NCBI GenBank assembly: GCA_027492735.1
Contig: JAPUEE010000005.1
Location: 65,719 to 129,718 of the forward strand
DNA from: Candidatus Saccharimonadota bacterium
Lineage (GTDB): Bacteria > Patescibacteriota > Saccharimonadia > Saccharimonadales > Saccharimonadaceae
Direction of reading: 5' to 3'
DNA length: 64,000 bases
The notes under the pieces are model-generated. The model was not told where the DNA came from. It saw only the letters and a program-made list of their open reading frames with translations, and did no database searches. Both the position numbers and the translations under genes were made by a program. Below, in pieces: positions 13,269 through 50,347 of the stretch. Position 1 is the first letter of the stretch; each line of letters starts with the position of its first letter.

Positions 13269-13547
13269 GTGAATTCAGACAATAACCAACCAACTAATCA
13301 ACAGCCGATTCAGGTAGTTATCGAACCAACCACGAAAAAGACAGGACTTCGGATAGGATGGGTAATCGTAGGGCTGGTGTGTTTGATGGCAGTGTGCATA
13401 GTGATTGGTAGCACGATTAGTCTACTGGCTCCACAATATAACGAAGCTCTTGGATACAGCTTGGCAATTGGGATGAGCTTGGCGGCGGTTGCTGGCGTCA
13501 TTATTGCTATCATTCAGGATGTAAAACGAAAGAAAGGTACAAAATGA
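13269..13547 (+). CDS. Small membrane protein, hypothetical (GTG start)
   Basis: 92 aa, starting immediately after the previous stop. Two hydrophobic helices. Its stop overlaps the pyrH start. Confidence 0.5.
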   Translation: MNSDNNQPTNQQPIQVVIEPTTKKTGLRIGWVIVGLVCLMAVCIVIGSTISLLAPQYNEALGYSLAIGMSLAAVAGVIIAIIQDVKRKKGTK

Positions 13548-14248
13548 GATTACTATTAAAATTATCAGGTGAACAGTTGGCGGGTGATAGCCCTAGAGGC
13601 TTTTCGGTTGAACGAGCTACGTGGATTGCCGATGAAATAAAAAAGGCCAAAACGGCCTCACCCGATGCAGAAATTGTGGTTATTGTTGGCGCCGGTAATT
13701 TTGTGCGCGGCGCGTATTTTGCAGGTCAACATGTTCGACCGGTGACAGCAGATAACATGGGGATGATGGGGACAATGATCAACGCCGTAGCGCTGGCTGA
13801 TGTTTTTAATGCCGAAGGCTTGCCGACGGCGGCCCTATCGAATATATCGTGCCAGCAAATTGTTGATGACTATACCCATCGACGAGCCTTGTCACATTTG
13901 TCCAAGGGCAGGGTAGTGATCGTGGCTGGCGGCACGGGTCGACCGTATTTTACCACTGACACGAGTGCATTGAACCTAGCTATCGAACTAGATTGCGATG
14001 TTATCGCAAAAGCCACCAAAGTCGACGGCATTTTTGATGATGATCCAGAAAAGAATCCGGATGCGCACAAGCTCGACACTATCTCCTATGACGATGCCTT
14101 GCGTGATAAAAAAGTCCGCGTTATGGACAAGGCTGCCTTGGCGCTCGCCGCCGAGCACAGCAAGCCAGTTGTCGTGTTCGAGCTGTTAAAGCCGGGCAAT
14201 ATTGCGAAAGTCGCGGGCGGGCAAACAGTCGGTACAAGCATTAGATAA
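13544..14248 (+). CDS. pyrH: UMP kinase
   Basis: 234 aa. LLKLSGE ... VVGAGNFVRG ... VIVAGGTGRPYFTTDTSALNLAIEL are typical of PyrH. Confidence 0.9.
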   Translation: MRLLLKLSGEQLAGDSPRGFSVERATWIADEIKKAKTASPDAEIVVIVGAGNFVRGAYFAGQHVRPVTADNMGMMGTMINAVALADVFNAEGLPTAALSNISCQQIVDDYTHRRALSHLSKGRVVIVAGGTGRPYFTTDTSALNLAIELDCDVIAKATKVDGIFDDDPEKNPDAHKLDTISYDDALRDKKVRVMDKAALALAAEHSKPVVVFELLKPGNIAKVAGGQTVGTSIR

Positions 14249-14289: not shown

Positions 14290-14356
14290 GTTCGCGTCTT
14301 TCGGTAGGGTCACCGTGATGTGGGTTTTTCCCATCTACTTGACGCTTCCCGCACTT

Positions 14357-14701
14357 CTAGGCTGCCACCCGCTTGGCTGCCTGCTTCCGGCCACGGGCCG
14401 GGTACTTCTGGTGGTGAACCTTGCGGCTCACTGTCGAGGTCCGGCCGAACCAGCCTTCAGTCTGGGCAATCTTGCCCGACTTGATGGCGGCGTCAACGGC
14501 CGCACGGACGGTGGTGGAGAATTCGCCGCTTCGGTAGTCGCCGAGCTGGCGATTCCGGTTGTGAACCTCTCCGGCTAGGAATCGAACCAGCTCACGGCGC
14601 GAGTTGGCACGAATGGCTCCGCCGAACTTCGTGAACACTGCCAGGACTCGTCTCTCGGCGATCCGGATCTGCTCATCGGTTGGCTCGAACTCTTTCACCA
14701 C
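14357..14701 (-). CDS. Hypothetical basic protein (island 1), GTG start as drawn
   Basis: 114 codons with high GC3 and a Lys/Arg-rich C-terminus (KYPARGRKQAAKRVAA). The start is uncertain because of the upstream C10 tract and mini-ORF. Confidence 0.5.
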   Translation of the reverse strand: MVKEFEPTDEQIRIAERRVLAVFTKFGGAIRANSRRELVRFLAGEVHNRNRQLGDYRSGEFSTTVRAAVDAAIKSGKIAQTEGWFGRTSTVSRKVHHQKYPARGRKQAAKRVAA

Positions 14702-14715
14702 CTTCCGATTGCTAC

Positions 14716-14725
14716 GGGGGGGGGG
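14716..14725. repeat. G10 homopolymer (C10 on the coding strand of the island-1 basic protein leader)
   Basis: Ten consecutive G counted directly. A +1 or -2 length change fuses the upstream mini-ORF to the 114-codon ORF. Confidence 0.9.
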
Positions 14726-14903
14726 TATGGCTGGACGATGCGTATGACGTCATCGCTCATCCTCCTCATTCTGTTGTTGTGCGGTGCACCACGTCGTCCT
14801 AGCTGGATTGCCAGGCTATCCGGTGGTGAGATAACTATAAATAGATAATATACTATTGTCAAGCAGTAGCGTAATCACCAGTGTAAACGCGCAACAGTAT
14901 TTA

Positions 14904-14932
14904 TTGACATAAACGTATTTGTATGCTACAAT
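14904..14932 (+). promoter_or_regulatory. Near-consensus promoter TTGACA-17 nt-TGcTACAAT driving the island-1 plus-strand operon
   Basis: TTGACA at 14904-14909, 17-nt spacer, extended -10 TGcTACAAT at 14924-14932. It lies in an AT-rich patch inside the GC-rich island. Confidence 0.6.
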
Positions 14933-15066
14933 AGTAAGCCATTGATCAGACAGCGAACTGGTCAAAGTAGTATTTACGTAGAACTTTTACATAGTAGGAG
15001 GTTTTGAATCTTTCCGATGTGTTATTTCCGCGTTTTTCGTGCGATAGTACACCGGGAGGGTTCGAA

Positions 15067-15411
15067 ATGGACTCACCTGGACAATCCATCGGAAGGAAGA
15101 CGTTGAAACGCTGGATACAAGGCCTAGCCCAATTGATGGGCATCTTCGTGGCCCTCGCGGCCATGAAGCTTGTATTGTTGGTTGACCGCCTAGTACGCTG
15201 GGCGGCCGATCAAAAGTCGCTGGTGGCCTTTGTGGCCATCAGCGTCGTACCGGTGCTGTTTTTCCTCGCAGTCGTGTTCGGCCTTTGGGCCGGGTACGAG
15301 TGGGGAATTATCGCGCTGCTCGTAGTTGCGGCTGGTGGCTCTATTGCTATCTTCGCGCTCATAATGACCGCGGGCCGACTGGTCCGCGCTGACTCGGAAG
15401 CGAGGAGATAA
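15067..15411 (+). CDS. Small polytopic membrane protein (island 1, gene A)
   Basis: ATG at 15067 preceded by GGGAGGG. 114 aa with about 3 TM helices and high GC3. The track ORF begins at TTG 15004. Confidence 0.55.
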   Translation: MDSPGQSIGRKTLKRWIQGLAQLMGIFVALAAMKLVLLVDRLVRWAADQKSLVAFVAISVVPVLFFLAVVFGLWAGYEWGIIALLVVAAGGSIAIFALIMTAGRLVRADSEARR

Positions 15412-15412
15412 C

Positions 15413-15655
15413 ATGACATTGCGAAAGGCGATGGGCCTCTGGTGCAGTCTGTTACTTGTCCAAATGGCTCTGGTAGCCTCAGTTCACGCGAGTACCGATC
15501 ATTACTCGAGTGAGGCTGTCGCCACATTTGATGTATTTGCTGCAATATCCGTTGCGATTGTTCTCGTGTCGGCCACGCTTAGCGTGGTTTGGACAAGGCG
15601 AGAAGCAAAACGGGCAGGTCAATCAACCCACATCAAACCGAGAGAAGGAAAGTAA
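15413..15655 (+). CDS. Small membrane/secreted protein (island 1, gene B)
   Basis: 80 aa. GAGGAG lies 7 nt upstream. Signal-like N-terminus plus one TM helix. Start is 1 nt after the gene A stop. Confidence 0.6.
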   Translation: MTLRKAMGLWCSLLLVQMALVASVHASTDHYSSEAVATFDVFAAISVAIVLVSATLSVVWTRREAKRAGQSTHIKPREGK

Positions 15656-15882
15656 TGATGCGAACGTCAAAATTCCTGGTATGGACTTCGCCAATAACGA
15701 TCTGGGCTGGAGCCGTCTGGGCTGTCGTAGCCGGGATCAACGGAGCCAGCCTCGGCGAGGCCACCGGCATTTTCGGCTGGTTTTTCCTCACCTTCATCAC
15801 CCAGATTCTCGCGGCGATCGCACTTTACGTGATCGCCGAGAAAGAGGAGGAGGCAAGGCGCCGCGGGGTCTGGACGTGGTGA
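15655..15882 (+). CDS. Small 2-TM membrane protein (island 1, gene C)
   Basis: 75 aa. TAATG overlap with gene B. Upstream GAGAGAAGGAAAG. High GC3. Confidence 0.6.
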   Translation: MMRTSKFLVWTSPITIWAGAVWAVVAGINGASLGEATGIFGWFFLTFITQILAAIALYVIAEKEEEARRRGVWTW

Positions 15883-16145
15883 GAGATCACGAGGAACGGC
15901 AAGCGCGCCGTCGACATGACTCCGCCGTGGGCCTGACCGTCGCGGTCGGGTTCACCGTTCTCTGGCTGGGTTTCCGGCCCGAGTGGTTCGGCATTGCGCC
16001 GGATACCATGACGTTCTGGTTCATCCGCCTGGTGGCGGTGATCTTGATCGTCTGCGCGATTAGCTGTGGAGTCCGCATCCACCACAATCGCAAGTCCAAG
16101 TCCAAGGCCGAGAGCGATCTTGGCCTCCCTCCTACAACGCGCTGA
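15879..16145 (+). CDS. Small 2-TM membrane protein (island 1, gene D), GTG start
   Basis: GTGGTGA overlap with the gene C stop. 88 aa with two hydrophobic helices and a basic tail. The upstream part of track ORF 15510..16145 is Arg-rich out-of-frame read-through of genes B and C. Confidence 0.5.
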   Translation: MRDHEERQARRRHDSAVGLTVAVGFTVLWLGFRPEWFGIAPDTMTFWFIRLVAVILIVCAISCGVRIHHNRKSKSKAESDLGLPPTTR

Positions 16146-16197
16146 CGCCCCTGTCAGCGTCTCCCTCGAAAGAGGTGAGGAATCAACGGGGCAACAA

Positions 16198-16222
16198 GCC
16201 CGGCCATACACCATGGCCGGGC
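16198..16222 (+). terminator. Perfect 10-bp hairpin at the right end of island 1
   Basis: GCCCGGCCAT-acacc-ATGGCCGGGC. A second hairpin GCTGAC-gcccct-GTCAGC spans the gene D stop (16141-16158). No strong T tract. Confidence 0.5.
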
Positions 16223-16319: not shown

Positions 16320-18158
16320 ATGAATTATTATGCTGATATAGTGGCTCGTACCGTCAAAGCCCTTTTTGATGTTGACATAACTATCAAGCTATCTCAACCG
16401 GACCCCAAGTTTGGTGATGTTGCAACAAATATAGCATTACAGCTCGCTGGACGTCTCGGTGAGAGTCCGCGGGAGATTGCTGAGACTATTGCAAAGGAGT
16501 TACATAGCAGCGGTGAGTTTCTGGATGTTACTATCGCGGGTCCGGGCTTTATTAATATGCGAATAGCGGCGAAACGGCTCAACAATACACTCGAGCAGGC
16601 TTTTGCTAGCGAAACGCCGTTTGGTAACAATAACGATGGCGTAAACAGAGTTGCTGTTGTTGAATATCCAAGTCCTAATATGGCGAAACCGTATAGCGTC
16701 GGACATTTGCGCAGTGGCAACCAAGGCTGGGCAGCCCGCAATTTATTGATGGCAACGGGATGGCAGGTGATAACTGACGATCATTTAGGTGATTATGGTG
16801 CGCCGTTCGGTATCTGGGTGGTTGGTTTCAAGGAGTTTTCATCCGAGGAGCAGTTGGCTGAGGGTGGGGTATATGAACTTGGTCGAGTCTATATTGAGAC
16901 CCGTCAGGCTATGAAAGACGAAGCTGAACGCGGTGAACAGCAACTAGCGGACCGGGCACAAGATTGGCTATTAAAATTAGAAAACGGCGATCCCGAGGCG
17001 GTCGAACTATCGGAAAAATTCAATGCTATTTCGCTCGAACACATCCATACTGTTATGCAGCGTCTAGGCATATCGACAGATTATGAATATGGTGAAAAGT
17101 TTTTTGCGCCCTATGGTAAAAAATGTGTACAGGACCTACTAGCGCAGGGCATTGCAACGCAAAATGACGATGGCTCGGTGATTGTTGATCTGTCAGATCA
17201 GGGAATCGATACGCCTCTTCTCATCCAAAAGAGCAATGGTGCCGCCCTCTATGCGACGACGGATCTCGCAACCATTTTGTGGCGCGAGGAGCATTGGCGA
17301 CCGAGCAAAGTTGTCTATTCGGTTGGTGCTGAACAAAAATTTTATTTTGAACAGCTAGCAGCCCTCGCGAAAAAACTCGGTATTGAAACGGAGCTGTATC
17401 ATCTGTGGTTCGGTACTATCGATCAGATAACCGAAGACGGTAAACGCGAAAAGATGTCGAGCCGCAAAGGTGTCGTGCTGATGGAGGAATTACTCGACGA
17501 AGCCGAGAGAAAGGCACGAGCCAATACGAAGTCAGAGGATATGACCGACCAGGACATTCGAAAGATTGCTGTTGGTGCGATCAAGTTCAGTGATTTCGCT
17601 GCTGATCGACGAACCGGTATGTTGTTTAACTGGGATACAATGTTTAGCCTGACAGGATTCTCCGGCCCCTATATTCAGTATGCTGCCGTCCGTATCAACA
17701 AGATTTTGCGGGATAATGGGATAGAATTGGCGACATCGTCAAATTCGTTATTCTGGGAGGCTCGCGAGGACGGCGAGCGCGTCAGCGACGAGCCCTGTGA
17801 CGACTACTCGCGCGCTGATCGGAAAGATCAGCCTTCGTCGGAAAAGTCTGCTCCGTCTATTGAATCACTGCAGAACAACGACTATGATTTCGAATCTGAA
17901 AAATCTTTACTATTGAAACTCATGGAATATCCAGAAACAATTTCTGTAGCCGCTCGCGAGCTCGAGCCGCACCGCGTAGCGAACTATGTGTATGAGTTAG
18001 CGCGCGAGCTCAATCGTTATTATGAGCAGACTCCGGTAGCAACAAAAGAAGTGCCGGATGATATTAAACAGGCTCGCCTAGGCTTACTCGTGAAAGTGTC
18101 GACAGTATTCGAGCACGCGCTCGGCATCTTGGGCATTGAAATTCCGAGTCGTATGTAA
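16320..18158 (+). CDS. argS: Arginine--tRNA ligase
   Basis: 612 aa. Class I HIGH-type motif (PNMAKPYSVGHLRS), MSSRKG (KMSKS-like) and a C-terminal DALR-type anticodon-binding segment (EPHRVANYVYELARELNRYYE). Confidence 0.95.
   Translation: MNYYADIVARTVKALFDVDITIKLSQPDPKFGDVATNIALQLAGRLGESPREIAETIAKELHSSGEFLDVTIAGPGFINMRIAAKRLNNTLEQAFASETPFGNNNDGVNRVAVVEYPSPNMAKPYSVGHLRSGNQGWAARNLLMATGWQVITDDHLGDYGAPFGIWVVGFKEFSSEEQLAEGGVYELGRVYIETRQAMKDEAERGEQQLADRAQDWLLKLENGDPEAVELSEKFNAISLEHIHTVMQRLGISTDYEYGEKFFAPYGKKCVQDLLAQGIATQNDDGSVIVDLSDQGIDTPLLIQKSNGAALYATTDLATILWREEHWRPSKVVYSVGAEQKFYFEQLAALAKKLGIETELYHLWFGTIDQITEDGKREKMSSRKGVVLMEELLDEAERKARANTKSEDMTDQDIRKIAVGAIKFSDFAADRRTGMLFNWDTMFSLTGFSGPYIQYAAVRINKILRDNGIELATSSNSLFWEAREDGERVSDEPCDDYSRADRKDQPSSEKSAPSIESLQNNDYDFESEKSLLLKLMEYPETISVAARELEPHRVANYVYELARELNRYYEQTPVATKEVPDDIKQARLGLLVKVSTVFEHALGILGIEIPSRM
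17759..17816 (+). repeat. GC-rich in-frame mini-insertion, copy 1 (in argS)
   Basis: CTCGCGAG ... CTCGCGCG bounded patch encoding AREDGERVSDEPCDDYSRA. It matches the ychF patch at 39/51 nt by hand alignment. Confidence 0.6.
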
Positions 18159-42360: not shown

Positions 42361-43086
42361 ATGAAAGTTCGTTTAGACCAGTTGTTAGTGAAACGCAAGT
42401 TAGTCGCCACCAGATCTCAGGCAGAGAGCTATATTCGCCTAGGCAAAGTGACGGTAGCAGATAAAACTATTACGAAACCAGGCTATTTTGTCGACGACGA
42501 GGCTCAGCCAAAGCTACTCCAGGATGAGCAGTATGTGTCGCGTGCTGGCCTAAAACTAGCAAGTGTGGCTGAGACGTTACAGCTTGATTTCAAGGGAAAG
42601 GTTGTGCTCGACGTTGGATCTTCGACGGGCGGATTTACTGACTATGCGCTCCGGCGCGGTGCTACTAAAGTCATAGCTGTTGATGTTGGTACTGATCAGA
42701 TGCATCCGAGTTTGCGTGATAATCCGAACGTAGAGCTGTATGAAAAGACTGATATTCGCGATTTTCATGTGGATCAGCCGCCTAATATTGTGGTGATCGA
42801 CGTCAGTTTCATTAGTTTGCGTGACATTTTGCCGCATATCGCGAAGCAGCTGTCTGATAGACATACGCAGATTGTCGCTATGGTTAAACCGCAGTTTGAG
42901 ACGGGATCACGGTTAAAAAATGCTGGTGTGATCAAAAATAACACCGATCGACGCCGTATTTTACAGGATTTTGAATTATGGACGCGCCAGTATTTCGTCA
43001 CTCGTGCCAAGGCTGATAGTGAAGTAGCAGGAACACATGGTAATAGAGAGCGATTCTATCTGTTAGAAACTACCAAAAGTGTATAA
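42361..43086 (+). CDS. tlyA: TlyA-family rRNA 2'-O-methyltransferase (S4 domain + FtsJ-like)
   Basis: RLDQLLVKRKLVATRSQAESYIRLGKV (S4 domain). SAM motif VLDVGSSTGGFTDYAL ... VIDVSFISL. Confidence 0.85.
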   Translation: MKVRLDQLLVKRKLVATRSQAESYIRLGKVTVADKTITKPGYFVDDEAQPKLLQDEQYVSRAGLKLASVAETLQLDFKGKVVLDVGSSTGGFTDYALRRGATKVIAVDVGTDQMHPSLRDNPNVELYEKTDIRDFHVDQPPNIVVIDVSFISLRDILPHIAKQLSDRHTQIVAMVKPQFETGSRLKNAGVIKNNTDRRRILQDFELWTRQYFVTRAKADSEVAGTHGNRERFYLLETTKSV

Positions 43087-43089
43087 AAT

Positions 43090-43118
43090 ATTGCTTTTTT
43101 TATTAAAATATGCTATTA
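43090..43118 (+). promoter_or_regulatory. Promoter TTGCTT-17 nt-TGcTATTAT at the left edge of island 2
   Basis: -35 at 43090-43095 and extended -10 at 43110-43118, in an AT-rich patch right after the tlyA stop. Confidence 0.5.
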
Positions 43119-43353
43119 TGTGATCAGTCTAGTCGAAAACGACTGGAGGTTTCGGTTGAGTTTTGTGAAACGAGGTGTCCTACGGTGTTGCCCCTAGGGG
43201 TGGCATAGATGGGAGCTGCCGTTTCGCGCGCTCCCGTTTTGACAATTTGTTCATCTTTATATTCATGACACACCCGAAGTCTTTTGTCGTTTTCGAATGG
43301 CGAAAAGTCCACGGGGAGGTCTCGTGGCAATCGTTCCAATGAAAGGGGACGGT

Positions 43354-45534
43354 ATGAGAAAGTTGGTAGGACTGGCCTGTGCGCTGGTCCTCACGGTGCT
43401 CGGGGTCATCGCCCCGGCATCAACCGCGTCCGCCCATCAGGGCAACATCAAGGTCTCGGACACGCAGTGCGTGGACGGGAACTCGATGAAGGCCACCTAC
43501 ACCGTAGGTTGGTCCAACGGCACCGGTAGCGGCAAGCTCTACACCAAGAGTGGGCTGTACAGCGGTGGCACGTCAACGTCCGGGTGGGACTTCGAGAAGA
43601 ACGTCTCCGGCGCGTCCGGCAGCGCGTCCTTCACGAAGACCCACACCTTCTCGGGCTCCAACGGCCCGTGGGTGGCGTTCAAGATCATCTTCGACGACAA
43701 CTACGTGGTCGGCGGAGATACCCGCGTCGAGGGCTGGGATTGGGACAAGTGCAAGCCTGCACAGCCTGATCCCAAGACCGTCACCGATCACGAGGAGAGC
43801 TGCAAGATGGCCATGCCGTCGGGCAAGCTCGGTGGCGAACGTGACCGCACCGGTACTCAGGCCTACGTCTGGAACGGATCCAGCTGGGTGCTCGGCGACA
43901 CCATCAAGTGGGGCGACTGGAAGTACACGCCCTACACCGACAGTCAGTACTTCAGCAAGTGTGCCGGGGACAATCCCGGCCCGAAGTACAGCGAGTGGTC
44001 ATCGTGGTCCAACGAGCAGCCGACCTGCGAGAGCACGATGGTGACGCAGACCCGGACGCGCACGAAGACCACTTACACCTGGGTCTGGAACGGCATGAAG
44101 GATCGTGGTGACTGGGTCGTCGATGAGGTGACCGAGGACAAGGAGACCCGCAAGGTCGAGATGTCCGACAAGGACTTCGCGGCCAACTGCAAGCCCGACC
44201 AGCCGGCGCCCAAGGCGCACACCGATTTCCAGAAGGGTTGCACCCTGAACGACGTCGGCGGCACCGCCACTAGGAACGGCACCGAGGCCTACAAGTGGGA
44301 CCTCGAGGATCGCAAGTGGGTCCTCAGTGGCAAGATCGACTGGCAGGACTGGGTCTTCACGGCCTACACCGACCAGGAGTTCCAGGCCAACTGCGCAGGT
44401 TCTCCCGAGCCCGACAAGGTCGTGGTGGACAAGGGCGAGTGGGTCGGGCAACCGACCTGTGATGCTCCCTCGATCTACCAGACTCGCGAGGTGGTCACGA
44501 CGACCACCAAGCAGGTCTGGAACCTCGATCTCCGCAAGTGGGAGTGGGGGACGCCGACCTCGGTAACCACCACGGAGACCGCCAAGAAGCCGACCGAGCT
44601 GACCAAGGATCAGATCAAGGCCTGCCATCCCAAGGATGCGCCGACCTTGGCCTACACCGGTCAGACCTGCACCGTTGGTGATCAGGGAGTCGGCCAACTT
44701 CACGGCGGCAGCCTGACGGTTACCAGCAGCGGCTGGACCGTCAAGGTCACCGACAAGGACGGGAAGGTCGTCAAGGACCTGACCGATCTCGATCCCGGCA
44801 ACTACACCGTCACGGCCAGCCTGGCCGATCCTGACGGTACCTCGGCTGGGAACATCGACGGCTGGACTCCGGGCGAGGACGGCACGATCAGCCAGATCGT
44901 CAACATCGCCACGGCGGACGACTGCACCATTCTCGAGCCGAAGCCCCGCGTGGAGCCCAAGGTCGAGGAGAAGCTCGAGTGCGACGGGGCCTACCGCCGC
45001 ACCTGGGATCTGGTCAGCTATCCCGTCTGGAAGGACGGGGAGTGGACCTTTGACGGGGTCGAGCCCAAGGTCGAGAACGAGACCGAGTGGAAGAAGTTCC
45101 GCGAGCTGTCGAACGACGAGTGGTTGGCCGCTGGCTGCCGCTCTGACCAGCCGCCGGCTCAGGTTCGTGTGATCCACGACCAGGGTTACAACTGTGATGG
45201 ACTCTGGGGTCGTACCCAGACCGGTACCACCGAGTACGTGTGGGTATGGTCCGGCATGGCCGACCGTGGCAGCTGGGTCCTCGGCGACGAGGTGCTCGGC
45301 GACTGGAGCGAGTGGACGTTCGTCCGCGAACTGACCAAGGCGGAGAAGGCGGAGTTGGGCTGCAACAGCACCCCGAATTCGCCGAATCAGCCGAAGGTGC
45401 CCCCAGTAGACGAGGACAACAGCGATGGCGTTCGCGCCGCCGCTGACCCTGCGCCGCTCATTGGCCTGGGTGTTCTCGCCGCGCTCGGCATCGCCGGTGC
45501 AGTCATTGCCATCCGGCGCCGCCGTCAGGCATGA
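43354..45534 (+). CDS. Secreted Cys/Trp-rich repeat surface protein with C-terminal TM helix + RRRR anchor (no LPXTG)
   Basis: ATG at 43354 after GAAAGGGGA. Signal peptide MRKLVGLACALVLTVLGVIAPASTASA. Six modules of about 55-70 aa are bracketed by Cys and rich in Trp/Tyr. C-terminus is DPAPLIGLGVLAALGIAGAVIAIRRRRQA. Confidence 0.8.
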   Translation: MRKLVGLACALVLTVLGVIAPASTASAHQGNIKVSDTQCVDGNSMKATYTVGWSNGTGSGKLYTKSGLYSGGTSTSGWDFEKNVSGASGSASFTKTHTFSGSNGPWVAFKIIFDDNYVVGGDTRVEGWDWDKCKPAQPDPKTVTDHEESCKMAMPSGKLGGERDRTGTQAYVWNGSSWVLGDTIKWGDWKYTPYTDSQYFSKCAGDNPGPKYSEWSSWSNEQPTCESTMVTQTRTRTKTTYTWVWNGMKDRGDWVVDEVTEDKETRKVEMSDKDFAANCKPDQPAPKAHTDFQKGCTLNDVGGTATRNGTEAYKWDLEDRKWVLSGKIDWQDWVFTAYTDQEFQANCAGSPEPDKVVVDKGEWVGQPTCDAPSIYQTREVVTTTTKQVWNLDLRKWEWGTPTSVTTTETAKKPTELTKDQIKACHPKDAPTLAYTGQTCTVGDQGVGQLHGGSLTVTSSGWTVKVTDKDGKVVKDLTDLDPGNYTVTASLADPDGTSAGNIDGWTPGEDGTISQIVNIATADDCTILEPKPRVEPKVEEKLECDGAYRRTWDLVSYPVWKDGEWTFDGVEPKVENETEWKKFRELSNDEWLAAGCRSDQPPAQVRVIHDQGYNCDGLWGRTQTGTTEYVWVWSGMADRGSWVLGDEVLGDWSEWTFVRELTKAEKAELGCNSTPNSPNQPKVPPVDEDNSDGVRAAADPAPLIGLGVLAALGIAGAVIAIRRRRQA

Positions 45535-45583
45535 TGTGAGAAGATGAACAAGTGCGAACTGCCAGCCAGGTAGCTCGCTCCCT

Positions 45584-45622
45584 GGGGTCTGATCTTGTCG
45601 CTCTCGCGACCGATCAGACCCC
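45584..45622 (+). terminator. Long hairpin plus T-rich tail after the surface protein gene
   Basis: GGGGTCTGATC ... GATCAGACCCC with inner GTCGC-tctc-GCGAC, followed by tcttctcatttc. Confidence 0.6.
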
Positions 45623-45679
45623 TCTTCTCATTTCTGGGGACAAAGATGTATAAAAATATTTTACAAAAAACACTAAATG

Positions 45680-45688
45680 TGATATAAT
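45680..45688 (+). promoter_or_regulatory. Extended -10 (TGaTATAAT) in the AT-rich spacer upstream of the sortase-like gene
   Basis: Exact TGnTATAAT, about 90 nt before the ATG at 45779. GAAGGTGG Shine-Dalgarno at 45763-45770. Confidence 0.55.
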
Positions 45689-45778
45689 AGAAAGTGCGCC
45701 TAGCAACAGATGCAAATCTGACTGGGCTTACCTCGAAGTAATCAATCTATCCATAATCCACAGAAGGTGGTGAACGTA

Positions 45779-46477
45779 ATGAAGCGCACAGTACTTGCCA
45801 TGCTTTGCCTGGCGGTGAGCGCCGCGTCGCTGTTCGGTGCCTTCTGGTACTGGAACAACGTCTACGCGGAGATCGAGGTCCCGATGGCCCCAATTCCGTC
45901 GCCAACGGTATCGTCGATCACGGTGCCGGTGAACGACGACGAGAAGCTCCCGCCGGTCGACATGCCGGAGAACCCTCGCGGCAAGCTAGATCACCTCGTT
46001 ATCTACCACGGTGGCAAGGCCATCGTCTCGATGGATTTCGGTCCAGCGACCTACGATTCCCTAGGGTGGGGATCCGAGTGCGGCAAGGTGGCCTATCGCG
46101 ACCGCGACGACTTCCCAAAGCCTGGTTTCGCCAGCAAAAACCGTTCGCTCGTGTCAGGTCACGTCTGGTGTGATAGGGAAACCTATACGCTAAACGATCT
46201 GGACAAGGTTCGGAAAGGTGACCGGGTTGAGGTCTACTACTCGTCCGGAGACGTGGCGGTAGGTCAGGCTGAGGCCGACGCCGCCGCCCTGCCGAAGGAC
46301 GAGCTGAATGCTGAACACAAGGGTCAGGTCAACCCCCGGCTCCGCAACAGCAAGAAGCTACGGACGATGCGAGTCAGTACCTGTGACACTGACTCGCCGG
46401 TGCGGGCGAACGGCCACTTGTCGGCCAACGTCTACGTACTGTACACGTTCAAGGAAATCAGATTTGCCGAACAGTAG
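45779..46477 (+). CDS. Membrane-anchored sortase-like transpeptidase (class E/F-like)
   Basis: 232 aa. N-terminal TM helix. His motif SLVSGHVW, then DKVRKGDRVEVYYSSGDV, Cys motif TMRVSTCDT and NVYVLYTF, in the order and spacing seen in actinobacterial sortases. High GC3. Confidence 0.6.
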   Translation: MKRTVLAMLCLAVSAASLFGAFWYWNNVYAEIEVPMAPIPSPTVSSITVPVNDDEKLPPVDMPENPRGKLDHLVIYHGGKAIVSMDFGPATYDSLGWGSECGKVAYRDRDDFPKPGFASKNRSLVSGHVWCDRETYTLNDLDKVRKGDRVEVYYSSGDVAVGQAEADAAALPKDELNAEHKGQVNPRLRNSKKLRTMRVSTCDTDSPVRANGHLSANVYVLYTFKEIRFAEQ

Positions 46478-46499
46478 GAGGAAATTGATGTTCGAGGTA

Positions 46500-46525
46500 C
46501 CCCGTCCCTGTCACAGGGGGCGGGG
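46500..46525. terminator. Imperfect GC hairpin between the convergent sortase-like gene and ychF
   Basis: CCCCGTCCCTG-tca-CAGGGGGCGGGG (one mismatch/bulge), then tattctcat. Confidence 0.45.
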
Positions 46526-46536
46526 TATTCTCATAG

Positions 46537-47715
46537 TTAGACATTAAATCGGAATTCGACGATGTCATCAGGCTGCATAATGTAGTTTTTGCCTTCGGTG
46601 CGAAGTTTGCCGGCAGCTTTGGCGGCCGCTTCTGAGCCTAGCTCGATCAGATCCGGATATGAAACAATCTGAGCAGCAATAAAGCCTTTTTCAAAGTCAG
46701 TGTGAATGACGCCGGCGGCCTGTGGGGCGGTCGAACCTTGTGTGATGGTCCAGGCGCGAACCTCTTTTGGTCCAGCCGTCAAATAACTCTGGAGACCTAA
46801 CGTATCATAGGCGGCGTGCGCCAGTTTTACGAGGCCGGATTCAGTAACGCCGTAGTCGGCGAGCAGTTCGGTGGCTTCGACGGCGCTCAGCTCGCGGAGT
46901 TGGCTTTCGAGTTCGGCGCAGACAAAGACAACCTGCGGACCGCCTGATGATGATAGCTCTCGCGAACGCTCCGCGCGCCCGTCGTTACGGGGCTTGTCGC
47001 TGGCGCCATTGCCGTCCTGCTGGAGCCTCGCGAGAGCCACATCATCACCGATTATTCTAGCTAATTCCTGTTGCTTTGTCTGGTCAGTCAATCCGTTCTC
47101 GTCGACATTGAACAAATAAATTATTGGTTTAGCAGTTAACAGATCGAGACCGTGTAATTTTTCGCTATCAAAACTAGCTGGTGTATTGCCAGCGAGCAGC
47201 TGACTCTGGAGAGTTGTGAGATAGTCGACAGTGGAGCGCATCTTTGGATCACTCTTGGCTTCTTTCATGACCTTTGGTAGATGATTTTCGATGGTGGCGA
47301 TGTCGGCGAGCATGAGTTCGGTGTTGATGACTTCGATATCGCTCTTCGGATCAGTAATCGTGGCGCCATCGGCTCTCTGGACGGTTGATGACTCAAACGC
47401 TCGAACCACGTGACAAATAGCGTCACATTCACGAATATTGGCGAGGAATTTATTGCCGAGACCTTCGCCACGACTAGCGCCTGCTACAAGACCGGCGACG
47501 TCAACAAATTCCACGGTAGCGGGGATGATCTTGTCGGTTTTATACAGGTCTGCGAGTACGTCGAGGCGCTCATCAGGAACTGGTACGATGCCAGTATTAG
47601 GTTCGATTGTCGCAAATGGGTAGTTAGCAGCTAAAATAGTGCCGCCTGTCAGGGCGTTAAATAGGGTGGACTTACCAACGTTGGGTAACCCGACGAGACC
47701 GATCTTGAGACTCAT
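46537..47715 (-). CDS. ychF: Ribosome-binding ATPase YchF, with about 30-aa internal insertion
   Basis: GLVGLPNVGKSTLFNALT G1 motif. C-terminal TGS-like GKNYIMQPDDIVEFRFNV. 392 aa, against about 363 typical. Confidence 0.9.
   Translation of the reverse strand: MSLKIGLVGLPNVGKSTLFNALTGGTILAANYPFATIEPNTGIVPVPDERLDVLADLYKTDKIIPATVEFVDVAGLVAGASRGEGLGNKFLANIRECDAICHVVRAFESSTVQRADGATITDPKSDIEVINTELMLADIATIENHLPKVMKEAKSDPKMRSTVDYLTTLQSQLLAGNTPASFDSEKLHGLDLLTAKPIIYLFNVDENGLTDQTKQQELARIIGDDVALARLQQDGNGASDKPRNDGRAERSRELSSSGGPQVVFVCAELESQLRELSAVEATELLADYGVTESGLVKLAHAAYDTLGLQSYLTAGPKEVRAWTITQGSTAPQAAGVIHTDFEKGFIAAQIVSYPDLIELGSEAAAKAAGKLRTEGKNYIMQPDDIVEFRFNV
46956..47037 (-). repeat. GC-rich in-frame mini-insertion, copy 2 (in ychF), with 10-bp terminal inverted repeats
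   Basis: GCTCTCGCGA (46956-46965) and TCGCGAGAGC (47028-47037). Encodes LARLQQDGNGASDKPRNDGRAERSRE. Homologous to the argS patch. Confidence 0.6.
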
Positions 47716-47736
47716 GCTTCTATTCTACAAAAAGGC

Positions 47737-47766
47737 TTGCCTTTTGAAAAGCGATTATGGTATAAT
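47737..47766 (+). promoter_or_regulatory. Promoter TTGCCT-15 nt-TGgTATAAT, -10 ends 7 nt before the pilM ATG
   Basis: -35 at 47737-47742 and extended -10 at 47758-47766. It lies back-to-back with the ychF TAGAAT box (47722-47727, minus strand). Confidence 0.55.
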
Positions 47767-47773
47767 TCTGCGC

Positions 47774-48817
47774 ATGGGCATAAAGAAATCAATAGGGGAC
47801 TTTTTTGCACTTGACATCGGTACCACAGCACTACGCGTCGTAGAGTTGTCGCACTCAGGTCAAGGCTGGAACTTGAAACATTACGCGGTAAAACCGATCG
47901 AAGCACGTCTCAGTGAGTCGACCGCCGAAGCCGATAAACACAACCTAGCACAGGCTATTTCTGAAGTTGTCGCAACATCTGGTGTACGTACCAAAAATGT
48001 AGCAATTGGTGTACCTTCGTCAAAGATGTTTGCATCAGTTGTTGAGGTGCCGAATGTTCCGAAAGCAGAATTAAGTGCCACAATTAAATACCAAGCTGAA
48101 AACTATGTTCCAATGAAGCCCGACGAGGCCAAAATTGACTGGGCAGTAATCGGTGAGTCAACGACTGATCGACAAAAAATCGAGGTGCTGGTTGCTAGCG
48201 TGTTAAACTCATTCACTGAGGCTCGTCTCGATATGCTCGAAGAGCTAGGATTCAACGTTGTAGCTATTGAACCGGATGCGCTAGCAGTGACGAGGGCATT
48301 ATTACCTGATGGGGTACAAGACGGTCGTTTAGTAATCGACATGGGCGATTCATCGACCGATCTCGTGTTGACGCTAGGTTCGGTGCCACGCTTGATTCGA
48401 TCGTTACCAATTGGTTTTAGTACTCTCGTAAAGTCAGCTAAACAGAACCTCAATATTGAGGAACAACAAGCTCGTCAATTATTGTTGAAATTTGGTGTAT
48501 CACCAGATAAACTCGAAGGCCAGTTGGCTCGTTCGGTTGACAACAGTCTCGATCAATTACTCGCAGAAGTTCAGAAATCCCTGAAATTCTTTGCTACGAA
48601 ATATCCAGGTGTCGGTGTTGGCGCTATTCTTTCGAGTGGCTACAGCGCATCACTCCCTGGTCTCGTTGATTTAATCAGTCAGAAGTCTGGCGTCGTTAGC
48701 CAAGCTGCAACACCATGGCAGCATGTTAACGTTCCTAGTAATGAACAGGCTAATTTGGCACCGTTATCGTCACAATTTGCAGTGGCGGTTGGACTGGCTG
48801 AGAGGATAGGAGTCTAG
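47774..48817 (+). CDS. pilM: Type IV pilus assembly protein PilM (actin-like ATPase fold)
   Basis: ATG at 47774 (MGIKKSIGDFFALDIGTTALRVVEL). The track ORF upstream extension overlaps ychF. Confidence 0.8.
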   Translation: MGIKKSIGDFFALDIGTTALRVVELSHSGQGWNLKHYAVKPIEARLSESTAEADKHNLAQAISEVVATSGVRTKNVAIGVPSSKMFASVVEVPNVPKAELSATIKYQAENYVPMKPDEAKIDWAVIGESTTDRQKIEVLVASVLNSFTEARLDMLEELGFNVVAIEPDALAVTRALLPDGVQDGRLVIDMGDSSTDLVLTLGSVPRLIRSLPIGFSTLVKSAKQNLNIEEQQARQLLLKFGVSPDKLEGQLARSVDNSLDQLLAEVQKSLKFFATKYPGVGVGAILSSGYSASLPGLVDLISQKSGVVSQAATPWQHVNVPSNEQANLAPLSSQFAVAVGLAERIGV

Positions 48818-48820
48818 TTC

Positions 48821-49585
48821 ATGATTCAGCTCAACTTGCTACCTGATATAAAGAAACAGCTGCTCCACGCACAGATGCAGCGGAATTTAGTTATATCAGT
48901 ATGTATCATTATTACTATTGTGGCAGGTTCTGTTATCTTGTTACTCGGTGGCATCATGGGCGGCCAAGCTCTTCAAAAGAACAACCTCACACAGAGTATC
49001 GAGGACAGCAAGACTGCTATTGCTAAAAAACAGAGTGATAGCCAGCTCGATCAATACCTGACGGTACAGAATCAATTGTCAAAAATTAGTAGCCTCAAAA
49101 GTCAACAACTGAATTATTCGAGAGTATTTGACTATCTGAGACAGTTAAATCCGGCTGCTCCTAACAGCGTATCGCTCGGTTCTGTCAAAATAACAGCTCC
49201 AGGTTCATCGTCGAGCACTGGCACCACAGAGTCCACGGGCGTGACTATAGAGCTACAAGGTGAGACAGCTAATTATTCTAGTCTCAATGTTTTCAAGAGC
49301 ACGTTATCTCTTGCCACGTTCTCATATGCTCCAAAAGAAGGTGCTAATGTCGAGACCAAGCCACTGTTTGTCTCAGTGACGGTTGCATCATCATCGCTCA
49401 CTAATGACAAATTGAGCTTTTCGATTATCGCAGTATTCGATACAGCAGTATTTTCATCAGATAGCGTTGATATCAAATTAGATATCCCTAACGAAACGAC
49501 TTCTGACTCCGATCGCAACTCTCCTAGTAATATCTTTAGTAGCGAACCGGTGAAGCCAAGCTCTACTAGTACGGAGGGGAACTAA
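48821..49585 (+). CDS. pilN: PilN-like pilus assembly protein
   Basis: MIQLNLLPDIKK N-terminus, then a TM helix and a coiled segment. Ser/Thr-rich C-terminus. Confidence 0.65.
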   Translation: MIQLNLLPDIKKQLLHAQMQRNLVISVCIIITIVAGSVILLLGGIMGGQALQKNNLTQSIEDSKTAIAKKQSDSQLDQYLTVQNQLSKISSLKSQQLNYSRVFDYLRQLNPAAPNSVSLGSVKITAPGSSSSTGTTESTGVTIELQGETANYSSLNVFKSTLSLATFSYAPKEGANVETKPLFVSVTVASSSLTNDKLSFSIIAVFDTAVFSSDSVDIKLDIPNETTSDSDRNSPSNIFSSEPVKPSSTSTEGN

Positions 49586-49588
49586 ATA

Positions 49589-50347
49589 ATGGAAAACAAG
49601 ACACTAACTGGTGTTAGAAAACGCCAAAAGATTGATCAGACGAACAAGCAGATGATGCTGTGGGTGGCAGGCGCTGCTGCTGCGGTGACAATTTGCGCTA
49701 TGCTTGCTATTAATTTGATTGGCCAGATCAAATACCAGGCAAAGATCATCTCAAAAAAGAGTGAAACGAGCGAGACGCTAAAAACTAGCCTCGATGCAGT
49801 TACTGCGTTAACAAAGAACATTAATACCTTGCAGACAGATCAGAATTTACTCGCACTGCGCGCCGATACTGACGATACAGCCTTTAATGTAGTCATAGAT
49901 GCTCTCCCAACCGAGGACGATGCGACGGCACTAGGTTCATCTATTCAGGAAAAGGTATTGGCGGGCTCTGGAGTTTCTCTAGAAAGTTTTGAATACGCTA
50001 CAATCAACGGTGCTACAGCTACAGGCAATACTGCTACCACTGATACTACGAAGTCAACCTCTAGTATTCGTCCTGAGGCGCAGGCTATTACGTTTAGATT
50101 CAAGATAACTGGCTCGTATGATTCAATCAAAGCTGCGTTGATTAATATCGAAAAGACTATCCGTCCAATTATTATCCAAAATCTCGATATTGACGGTACG
50201 GTCGATGAACTTACCGCCACTGTTTCGGCTACGACGTATTATGTTCCACGAGTACATTATGCTGTTGGTGAAGAGTCTGTCTTGCCTGATGGCGTCAAGG
50301 CTACTACCGAGAATGCCAGTTCCGCTAGTGAAGGGAGCAAGAAATGA
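49589..50347 (+). CDS. pilO: PilO-like pilus assembly protein
   Basis: N-terminal TM helix plus coiled coil. Position between pilN and pilB. The call rests on position and topology. Confidence 0.5.
   Translation: MENKTLTGVRKRQKIDQTNKQMMLWVAGAAAAVTICAMLAINLIGQIKYQAKIISKKSETSETLKTSLDAVTALTKNINTLQTDQNLLALRADTDDTAFNVVIDALPTEDDATALGSSIQEKVLAGSGVSLESFEYATINGATATGNTATTDTTKSTSSIRPEAQAITFRFKITGSYDSIKAALINIEKTIRPIIIQNLDIDGTVDELTATVSATTYYVPRVHYAVGEESVLPDGVKATTENASSASEGSKK

Follow-up and report, generated by a model that had tools for sequence, protein, structure and literature searches.

A compositionally foreign surface-protein and sortase-fold gene pair at the tlyA-ychF junction of Saccharimonadales, and evidence that its high G+C content need not be recent

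We analysed a 64,000-nt stretch of a Candidatus Saccharimonadota genome (assembly GCA_027492735.1, contig JAPUEE010000005.1, positions 65,719 to 129,718; hereafter the window), in which an island of high G+C content lies between tlyA and ychF. The island contains two genes, of which gene 1 encodes a surface protein and gene 2 a sortase-fold enzyme. On balance, we lean towards the view that the island is a long-resident and swappable surface-display cassette, which came ultimately from outside the lineage and sits at a recombination hot spot. The cassette is of a known kind, the dedicated sortase-substrate unit, and what sets it apart is a non-canonical signal, an ancestry that crosses phyla, its location at a hot spot, and a persistently foreign composition. 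An earlier note on the same DNA, made from the sequence alone, had read the island as a recently acquired and barely ameliorated import from a high-G+C Gram-positive donor. Its supposition that the genome might belong to a Saccharibacteria-type episymbiont agrees with our assignment to Saccharimonadales, as EF-P falls into a 90% cluster with Ca. Nanoperiomorbaceae and the relatives are named Ca. Saccharimonas or Saccharimonadales.

The composition switches abruptly at both ends of the island, as had been claimed. Measured in 300-nt windows, the G+C content rises from 0.42-0.49 (42,800-43,400) to 0.62-0.67 (43,400-45,650), dips to 0.47 in the spacer between the two genes (45,535-45,778), amounts to 0.58-0.62 over gene 2, and is ~0.50 by the ychF stop. 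The G+C content of third codon positions (GC3) is 0.85-0.86 in gene 1 and 0.76 in gene 2, with a median of 0.45 for the 49 long open reading frames (ORFs) of the window; the statement that third positions are almost all G or C thus holds for gene 1 and is overstated for gene 2. Besides the island, GC3 outliers of the window are confined to 14,357-16,145. Karlin's delta*, a G+C-normalised dinucleotide signature, is 145 between the island and the remaining window, compared with 59 ± 16 (maximum 92) for native 3.2-kb chunks of the same size as the island. The antisense strand does carry a stop-free ORF of 392 codons (43,999-45,177), as the earlier note had pointed out. It exists because gene 1 has only three TTA, TCA, or CTA sense codons (codons 33, 84, and 226), all before codon 227, and we reject it as a gene, since it is the expected by-product of the rarity of these codons.

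An abrupt switch at both ends, in a metagenome-assembled genome, might be produced by a high-G+C contaminant chimerically joined into a Saccharimonadales contig. However, both junctions were seen again in independent assemblies, at 99.9% identity over 42,512-47,942 in locus L006 and at 100% over 42,535-47,964 in locus L005, and a chimeric join is therefore excluded. With identical junctions in at least three independent assemblies and samples, orthologous arrangements at eight or more other loci, and a conserved promoter and leader, the probability of an assembly artefact is practically nil.

Saccharimonadales with only 59-88% identity in the flanking proteins carry this cassette between tlyA and ychF, at the same GC3 and with a shared dinucleotide signature, which contradicts the reading of the island as recently acquired and barely ameliorated. 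The earlier note had itself set islands of similar G+C content in relatives against its reading, and such islands are largely what we found, in the diverged loci L001, L007, L008, L011, L012, L013, L018, L019, L079, and L097. Both genes are present in L001, between tlyA (or blaPG) and ychF, with GC3 of 0.88 and 0.76 compared with 0.50-0.56 in the flanks. Both are also present in L012 (0.82 and 0.64 compared with 0.32-0.40) and L013 (0.87 and 0.77 compared with 0.53-0.62). Between tlyA (or blaPG) and ychF, loci L007 and L008 carry gene 1 only, L011 carries a gene-1-like gene and a Pfam sortase, and L018 and L019 carry gene-2 relatives with other substrates. At each of the loci from L001 to L019 just described, the cargo is G+C-elevated over its own flanks, whatever the background.

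The synonymous sites of these cassettes have been extensively replaced. The flank proteins of L001 and the window are 65-68% identical, and four-fold divergence is near saturation, with 0.62-0.67 in the flanks and 0.61 in the island, where the skewed composition caps it near 0.62. Between 35% and 59% of the island four-fold sites differ, and C<->G exchanges make up 42-45% of the differences, compared with 8-10% in the flanks; third positions of the island have therefore turned over while staying G or C. Furthermore, the island orthologues share a dinucleotide signature (delta* 23-37) that is foreign to their own flanks and genomes (161-187). By a rough neutral estimate based on the window and L012, which diverge by 0.64 at the four-fold sites of the flanks, a GC3 of 0.95 would have decayed to ~0.6, compared with the observed 0.82-0.86. 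High GC3 is no sign of recency here, and it may be sustained by selection at synonymous sites, by repeated re-import, or by GC-biased conversion where recombination is frequent.

A recent host-to-epibiont transfer from a high-G+C Gram-positive donor, too young to have ameliorated, would fit the strong compositional and dinucleotide anomaly, as well as three observations given below: the site is empty in most relatives, homologues are actinobacterial or high-G+C and phage-like, and one exchange of the locus is demonstrably recent, albeit between Saccharimonadales. We consider such a transfer very unlikely, given the orthologous cassettes of the same GC3 in lineages with four-fold-saturated flanks, the C<->G turnover at third positions, the GC3 above the rough neutral expectation, a conserved promoter and leader of Saccharimonadales type, and best actinobacterial identities of only 33-40%. 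Neither the ORF list nor the repeat search of the window revealed an integrase, a transposase, a tRNA, or flanking direct repeats, which also speaks against it. No candidate direct repeat was convincing as an insertion scar, and repeat D13 consists merely of similar A+T-rich promoter patches.

The promoter of gene 1 has a conserved position in all gene-1-type loci, and a seven-locus alignment gives TTTAC/TTGC...TATGxTAxAAT, although the -35 element is too weak to be listed in a consensus scan. A leader follows the promoter, and nhmmer matched it upstream of gene-1-type genes beyond the training set, in L097 (8.5e-14), L079, and L018, and nowhere else. The actinobacterial homologue in L010 has no such leader upstream. 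The presence of promoter and leader at every gene-1-type cassette and their absence from the actinobacterial homologue argue for a single entry followed by diversification within Saccharimonadales. At the orthologous positions of L001, L007, L008, L011, L012, L013, L018, L079, and L097, the conserved unit comprises the promoter and a leader of 150-230 nt, with the near-invariant motifs GGTTGAG and TT(A/G)ACAAT(T/C) and a small G+C hairpin followed by a T-run. We do not claim the leader as a structured RNA or riboswitch, as there was no Rfam match and RNAalifold gave no consensus structure; it could be a protein-binding or attenuator element. The island forms two transcription units, in which each gene has its own A+T-rich promoter, and hairpins lie after gene 1 and between gene 2 and ychF. 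The gene 2 promoter sits in an A+T-rich patch within the island (G+C 0.47).

A TlyA-guided scan yielded 80 related metagenome loci, 65 of which have a convergent ychF downstream of tlyA. The empty site that the earlier note proposed to look for was found in most of them (37 of the 65), with a tlyA-ychF gap of less than 160 nt and often of 0-30 nt. The non-empty gaps hold 300-3,250 nt of varied cargo, including the gene-1-type cassettes of L079 and L097. Other pairs, consisting of a secreted protein with a transmembrane (TM)/RR tail and a sortase-like protein, occupy the gaps of L036 and L098, and these also have elevated GC3. The nearest relatives, L012 and L013, and several distant ones carry the cassette, and carriers are scattered among empty-site lineages in a neighbour-joining tree of TlyA and YchF (no bootstrap).

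Other Saccharimonadales (L031, L042, L076, L080, L085, L090, L040, and L043) have unrelated cargo of 1-3 kb at the junction, which is G+C-elevated in L031 (0.59 vs 0.51) and not elevated in L040 and L043. Several genes recur among this unrelated cargo, among them one for a protein of 226-232 aa ("MYFKSR..."). In addition, isolated high-GC3 genes lie just beyond ychF in L007 (11,607-12,722, GC3 0.69) and L011 (12,813-13,505, GC3 0.75), suggesting that G+C-rich cargo is not confined to the tlyA-ychF gap.

Direct evidence for movement of the cassette comes from L005. From S6 up to around codon 58 of tlyA, this locus matches L013 at 96-100% identity; the next 5,430 nt are 100% identical to the window, after which the two diverge again. 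Identity between its L013-like backbone and the window is 83-88% in the S6-EF-P region and 63-76% in blaPG. At the informative sites of tlyA, the L013-type gives way cleanly to the window-type, and the breakpoints in tlyA and pilM are sharp. L006, assembled by SPAdes from another sample, covers almost exactly the 5,430-nt block, as expected for a segment present on two co-occurring backbones. Since the block is identical between backbones that are ~85% identical, the cassette moves by homologous recombination. Judged by its sequence, the block was left by a recent homologous exchange that took in the entire locus. Pneumococci likewise exchange their capsule locus, which lies between dexB and aliA, by homologous recombination, and that locus resembles the tlyA-ychF site in its variable cargo between conserved core genes and in whole-locus replacement with sharp breakpoints in the flanks. 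Unlike capsule-type loci, the cargo here is a 3.4-kb surface-protein/sortase unit of foreign composition, and most lineages are empty. Saccharibacteria are naturally competent (PMC10633639), which makes homologous replacement via the flanks the likely vehicle.

Gene 1 probably begins at the GTG at 43,324 and not at the ATG at 43,354 where it had been placed, because the GTG follows a ribosome-binding site (GGGGAGG) and aligns with the start codons of orthologues; the related protein P0010 has Val at the position equivalent to 43,354. The rest of the described layout was borne out, namely a signal peptide, six Cys-bracketed Trp-rich modules, and a C-terminal TM helix with RRRR. The signal peptide read from the sequence is MAIVPMKGDGMRKLVGLACALVLTVLGVIAPASTASA, followed by HQ (..ASTASA/HQ), and homologues share the AxA-HQG junction. 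In the mature part, 16 Cys make up 8 brackets: one encloses an N-terminal domain (C49-C143), six enclose modules of 51-56 aa, and one an immunoglobulin (Ig)-like module of 85 aa. The Cys pairs probably form disulfides, and the Trp content is 4.8%. The AlphaFold2 model (predicted local distance difference test, pLDDT, 75) is all-beta, with small domains arranged as beads on a string. Foldseek returned only generic multi-Ig matches (TM-score ~0.1), and no specific adhesin family can therefore be named. Likewise, no Pfam or NCBIfam family and no useful PDB match were found by sequence. Weak, sub-threshold matches linked the tail to the C-terminal sorting domains MYXO-CTERM and CoaP, and no other ORF of the window has a TM-plus-basic C-terminal tail. 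These features support the earlier designation as a surface protein.

Both gene families are rare, with 9 and 15 matches among 5.8 billion clusters. Gene 1 has a mosaic structure, as its ends are 89-98% identical to those of P0010 and its centre is ~51% identical or absent. No match to gene 1 was found by tblastn in 50,697 phage records, and scans of IMG/VR with P0017 and with gene 1 gave no relatives.

Gene 2 is, on its modelled structure and family profiles, a sortase-fold enzyme of a divergent clade that is nearest to class F and below the curated class F threshold. The AlphaFold2 model (pLDDT 80) has an N-terminal helix (residues 2-29) and a beta-barrel, and the top six Foldseek matches in PDB are all sortases (among them B. 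anthracis SrtD, A. oris SrtA, and S. aureus SrtA), with E values of 9e-6 to 3e-3, probabilities of 0.99-1.00, and target-relative TM-scores of 0.51-0.63. Gene 2 itself scored 20.7 bits with Pfam Sortase (PF04203, cut-off 26.6) and 17.6 bits with the NCBIfam class F profile (NF033748, cut-off 166), and did not match the class E profile (NF033747). The earlier assignment to class E/F is therefore upheld for the sortase fold, the invariant His and Cys, and the proximity to class F, and not for class E.

An exhaustive profile search of 1.84 billion representatives gave only 66 relatives of gene 2. Of the 47 aligned members of the extended family, 35 match Pfam Sortase at E <= 0.01 (best 3.1e-19), and 36 match class_F_sortase (best 6e-28), which is the best-matching class. 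Residues P115, G116, H128, and C202 are invariant in the gene 2 family, H128 and C202 in 47 of 47 members, and the His (GHVWC) and Cys (STCD) motifs do not vary within the family. R209 is invariant in nine close relatives, and frequent but not universal in the extended family. The wider family profile aligns iaGH and liTCD to IAGH and LITCD of S. aureus SrtA, which contain His120 and Cys184 of that enzyme. A PDB sequence search with the close relatives gave nothing useful, and only the wider family profile reached sortases. Among GTDB representative genomes, close gene 2 relatives occur in one species only (the L001 genome), and no other ORF of the window belongs to the sortase family.

Class F sortases, such as SrtF of Cutibacterium (Propionibacterium) acnes, resemble gene 2 in the sortase fold, the N-terminal membrane anchor, and the order GH...TCD, and the nearest relative of gene 2 outside the Candidate Phyla Radiation (CPR) also belongs to Propionibacteriaceae. 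In contrast, the presumed substrate of gene 2 lacks LPXTG, whereas P. acnes SrtF was reported to use LPXTG substrates (PMC8225981), and the gene 2 clade is found in Saccharimonadales at a fixed chromosomal hot spot.

Five substrates adjoin a gene-2-type enzyme (those of the window, L013, L012, L001/L003, and L019), and none has LPXTG or LAXTG near its C-terminus. They have in common P-x-[DE]-E-D-x-[GS]-D-G-x-[RQ]-x(3-6)-P-L-TM-RRR, and the L019 substrate shares the acidic motif despite an unrelated passenger domain. Gene 1 has no LPXTG-like pentapeptide directly ahead of its hydrophobic segment; VPPVDEDNSDGVRA stands there instead, and the segment is followed by a positive tail (IGLGVLAALGIAGAVIAI-RRRR-QA). 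The acidic motif occupies the site of LAxTG or LPNTG in orthologues, and family members from loci without gene 2 have LPNTG or LA[YKL]TG with a TM helix and a basic tail, including L007 and L008 (LPNTG or LAYTG). VPT(V)VDAG is found at the equivalent place in Nocardioides homologues. The acidic motif is thus a candidate recognition element of the gene-2 clade. An internal LAYTG also occurs in gene 1, in a Cys-Cys linker (residues 441-445; 44,644-44,658), and it is the same pentapeptide as the C-terminal motif of the orthologues. It is probably due to chance, because it is not conserved in orthologues and no helix follows it.

Sortases with non-standard signals are known, such as the S. aureus SrtB-IsdC pair with NPQTN, class D with LPXTA, and class E with LAXTG (PMC8225981). 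The island resembles such pairs in that the sortase gene adjoins one secreted protein with a motif, a TM helix, and a basic tail, and in that the motif differs from LPXTG and varies with the enzyme type. It differs from them in that the candidate signal ED-x-[GS]-DG is acidic, is placed 10-15 residues ahead of the helix, and has no residue but the final Gly in common with known signals. Gene 2 might instead not be the anchoring enzyme of gene 1, in which case gene 1 would merely be anchored in the membrane by its C-terminus, and gene 2 would act on other substrates as a protease or transpeptidase, or be inactive. The absence of LPXTG and LAXTG from gene 1, the scores of gene 2 under curated cut-offs, the two separate transcription units, and the pairing of a gene-2 relative with an unrelated Pro/Thr-rich protein in L018 are all in line with this alternative, and no role of class F sortases is known in Actinoplanes (PMC13251363). 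However, a secreted protein with a TM-RRR tail stays paired with a gene-2-type enzyme across 30-80% identity, even where the passenger domains are unrelated (L019 and L018). The acidic motif is conserved where the remainder of the substrate is 35% identical or unrelated, and His and Cys are invariant in all family members. We regard an unlinked gene 2 as doubtful.

Homologues of either gene outside the CPR were found only in high-G+C Actinomycetota (Nocardioides and Nigerium) and in a high-G+C phage-like contig. The modules and the N-terminal domain of gene 1 are homologous to the Nocardioides proteins P0136 and P0137 (E 5e-31, 33% identity). On the L010 contig (72.6% G+C), a gene 1 homologue has a GC3 of 0.95, with neighbours at 0.91-0.97, and a class-F-like sortase two genes downstream matches the hidden Markov model of the gene-2 family at 7.6e-15. 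A "sortase family protein" of Nigerium massiliense (WP_147675090.1, Propionibacteriaceae) is 40% identical to gene 2 (E 7e-32). L009, a contig of 65.5% G+C with phage-typical PHROG matches, carries a gene-1 relative with an LAYTG signal, which is 49-54% identical to the window modules in amino acids and 69% in nucleotides over 543 nt, and thus as close as other Saccharimonadales orthologues. The actinobacterial origin proposed earlier therefore finds support in the distribution of homologues, though at identities of 33-40% and not at the high identity expected of a recent donor.

The Nocardioides repeat proteins (P0136 of N. aestuarii, P0137 of N. euryhalodurans, and P0023) have homologous Cys-bracketed Trp-rich modules (C..YVW..W..W..YTD.EY...C), and P0136 and P0023 share the AHQG..C N-terminal domain with gene 1. 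They also end in a TM helix and RRR without LPXTG, preceded by VPT(V)VDAG, and in L010 a member of the same extended sortase family is encoded two genes away. They differ from gene 1 in their ~33% identity, in long arrays of 8-10 modules, and in a G+C content equal to that of the host genome, and the Nocardioides-type homologue lacks the Saccharimonadales-type promoter and leader. The delta* of the island is 75 to L009 and 109 to L010, compared with 145 to its own genome. These homologues, and a signature nearer to L009 and L010 than to the own genome, favour, short of proof, a direction from Actinomycetota or phage into Saccharimonadales.

The opposite direction deserves consideration, in which the cassette would be native to Saccharimonadales, its G+C content would have been made locally by codon or mRNA selection or by GC-biased gene conversion (gBGC) at the hot spot, and the actinobacterial and phage copies would stem from reverse transfer out of the epibiont into its host or into phage. 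Lineages that differ in background GC3 (0.37 vs 0.58) show a stationary GC3 in the cassette, the locus is a demonstrated recombination hot spot, the gene-2 clade consists mostly of Saccharimonadales with Nigerium as the single named actinobacterium, and the other surface-protein/sortase cargo at the site (L036 and L098) is also G+C-elevated. Nevertheless, we consider a native origin quite unlikely. The known effects of gBGC in bacteria are far smaller than 40 points of GC3, and the flank genes in the exchanged block (the 3' part of tlyA, and ychF) are not strongly G+C-enriched. The GC3 of the L010 homologue equals that of all its neighbours, many Nocardioides-type family members lie on Mb-size contigs with long tandem module arrays, and the island signature is nearer to the high-G+C contigs than to its own genome. 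The LAxTG signals of the family are, moreover, of the actinobacterial class-E type (PMC8225981).

Several points weigh against the long-resident, imported cassette that we favour. Polarised substitutions in the island lean weakly from G/C to A/T (strong-to-weak 45 vs weak-to-strong 25) and are compatible with slow decay; we rejected these counts, polarised with L012 as outgroup, as a means of deciding between stationarity and slow decay, being too noisy and saturated. L008 (GC3 0.67) and L018 (0.64-0.69) appear to have ameliorated in part. The deep nodes of the neighbour-joining tree are unsupported, which makes many losses and lateral spread inseparable. Gene 2 is below the Pfam and NCBIfam cut-offs, and its catalytic Arg is not securely placed. 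The covariation of motif and enzyme comes from five loci, perhaps three independent lineages. Finally, we infer the direction of transfer from composition alone, and if some force keeps the GC3 of the cassette high, composition is a weaker guide to origin.

If our favoured reading is right, the first transcription unit would consist of gene 1 with its A+T-rich promoter, ~200-nt leader, and terminator-like hairpin, and would encode a secreted beta-rich protein with a tripartite C-terminal signal, that is, the acidic ED-x-[GS]-DG motif, the TM helix, and RRRR. The second would express gene 2 from its own strong promoter, giving a membrane-anchored class-F-like sortase. Sec would export the gene 1 protein, whose C-terminal helix would keep it in the membrane, and Cys202 and His128 of gene 2 would cleave it at or near the acidic motif and link it to the cell wall. 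An adhesin-like protein would thereby be displayed, from genes adjoining those of the type IV pilus; the part in host mimicry or host range that the earlier note suggested would be conjectural. The pair, or parts of it, may have come from high-G+C Actinomycetota or their phages, the relatives found being Propionibacteriales. The cassette would have gained its Saccharimonadales promoter and leader once, and later have persisted and been exchanged among Saccharimonadales by homologous recombination via the tlyA and ychF/pilM flanks. The cassette can be likened to the adhesins of Southlakia epibionticum, which are large secreted surface proteins of an epibiont of Actinomycetota, encoded beside type IV pilus genes; transposon sequencing of that species indicated that protein adhesins are required for the epibiotic growth of Saccharibacteria (PMC10633639).

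Table 1 Features of the tlyA-ychF locus in the window (MFE, minimum free energy; z, score relative to shuffled sequences).
Feature	Position	Strand	Remarks
tlyA-like rRNA methyltransferase (S4 + FtsJ)	42361..43086	+	Pfam FtsJ 1.5e-34, S4 1.3e-10; GC3 0.44; native left flank
Left recombination breakpoint inside tlyA	~42,534/42,535		End of block shared with L005
Block shared with L005, 5,430 nt (tlyA 3' part, island, ychF, start of pilM)	42535..47964	.	100% identical
Promoter-like site for gene 1	43091..43119	+	TTGCTT, 17-nt spacer, TG-n-TATTAT; A+T-rich
5' leader of gene 1, ~200 nt	43120..43323	+	GGTTGAG motif; small G+C hairpin then TTTTGACAATTTGTTCATCT
Gene 1, 736 aa (probable start)	43324..45534	+	Signal peptide, Cys-bracketed domains, Pro-rich linkers, sorting-signal-like C-terminal tail
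Acidic motif VPPVDEDNSDGVRA	45397..45438	+	Consensus P-x-[DE]-E-D-x-[GS]-D-G-x-[RQ]
Peptide spanning the gene 1 acidic motif			PPVDEDNSDGVRAAADPAPL
Gene 1 C-terminal hydrophobic helix IGLGVLAALGIAGAVIAI + RRRR	45460..45525	+	Read from sequence
Stable terminator-like hairpin 3' of gene 1	45585..45622	+	MFE -33.5 kcal/mol, z = -6.0
Strong sigma-70-type promoter of gene 2	45660..45688	+	TTTACA, 17-nt spacer, TATAAT, TG extension; 11/12 consensus matches
Gene 2, 232 aa, membrane-anchored sortase-fold enzyme	45779..46477	+	His128 (SGHVWC), Cys202 (STCD), candidate Arg209
G+C-rich inverted repeat between convergent gene 2 and ychF	46498..46526	.	z = -4.3 (+ strand), -3.1 (- strand); likely bidirectional terminator
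ychF GTPase	46537..47715	-	Pfam YchF-GTPase_C 1.7e-37; native right flank, convergent with the island

The coordinates of the locus are listed in Table 1. The island borders a type IV pilus cluster (47,771-50,347) with pilM and pilN/O-like genes, followed in relatives by pilB, pilT, and pilC. At least one gene without a recorded Pfam match, one of them encoding 737-890 aa, lies between ychF and pilM in L001, L008, L011, L018, and L019, and such genes are missing in the window and L012. The Pam pilus system of Ca. Mycosynbacter (bioRxiv 10.64898/2026.03.03.709456) is unrelated; its context differs, as it lies next to ATP synthase. The ychF gene carries a G+C-rich insert of ~35 codons (DVALARLQQDGNGASDKPRNDGRAERSRELSSSGGP, at 46,700-47,000, G+C ~0.61), and YchF of the window has 392 aa, compared with 357-361 aa in several relatives; longer forms also occur in L001, L003, and L007. 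A second G+C-elevated patch ("island 1", 14,300-16,200) lies between pyrH-like (13,544-14,248) and argS-like (16,320-18,158) genes. Its ORFs, 14,357-14,701 (-), 15,004-15,411 (+), and 15,510-16,145 (+), have GC3 of 0.64-0.76 and encode small membrane-like products, for which no family match was found except a weak NrsF match.

The case described here shows that a strong G+C anomaly need not mean a recent transfer; it outlasts synonymous saturation, which challenges the reading of such anomalies as an "amelioration clock". The junction of the core genes tlyA and ychF acts as a cargo hot spot, and the identical 5.4-kb block testifies directly to the reshaping of surface repertoires by natural competence in uncultivated Saccharimonadales. 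From the covariation of enzyme and motif, a candidate substrate signal emerges for class-F-like sortases, whose roles have yet to be established (PMC13251363). A bolder proposal would join three elements: an undescribed sortase clade that reads an acidic ED-x-[GS]-DG signal (hinted at by Nocardioides VVDAG), a host-derived adhesion or wall-binding module swapped by natural transformation as a host-range determinant, and an actinobacterial-type codon composition that is actively maintained. That all three hold together seems unlikely to us; if it is true, the acidic signal would be the first cognate substrate class for class-F-like sortases. With a cargo that is a surface-display unit, encoded beside the pilus genes needed for attachment, the cassette makes genetic traffic between ultrasmall epibionts and their host phylum testable on a concrete example.

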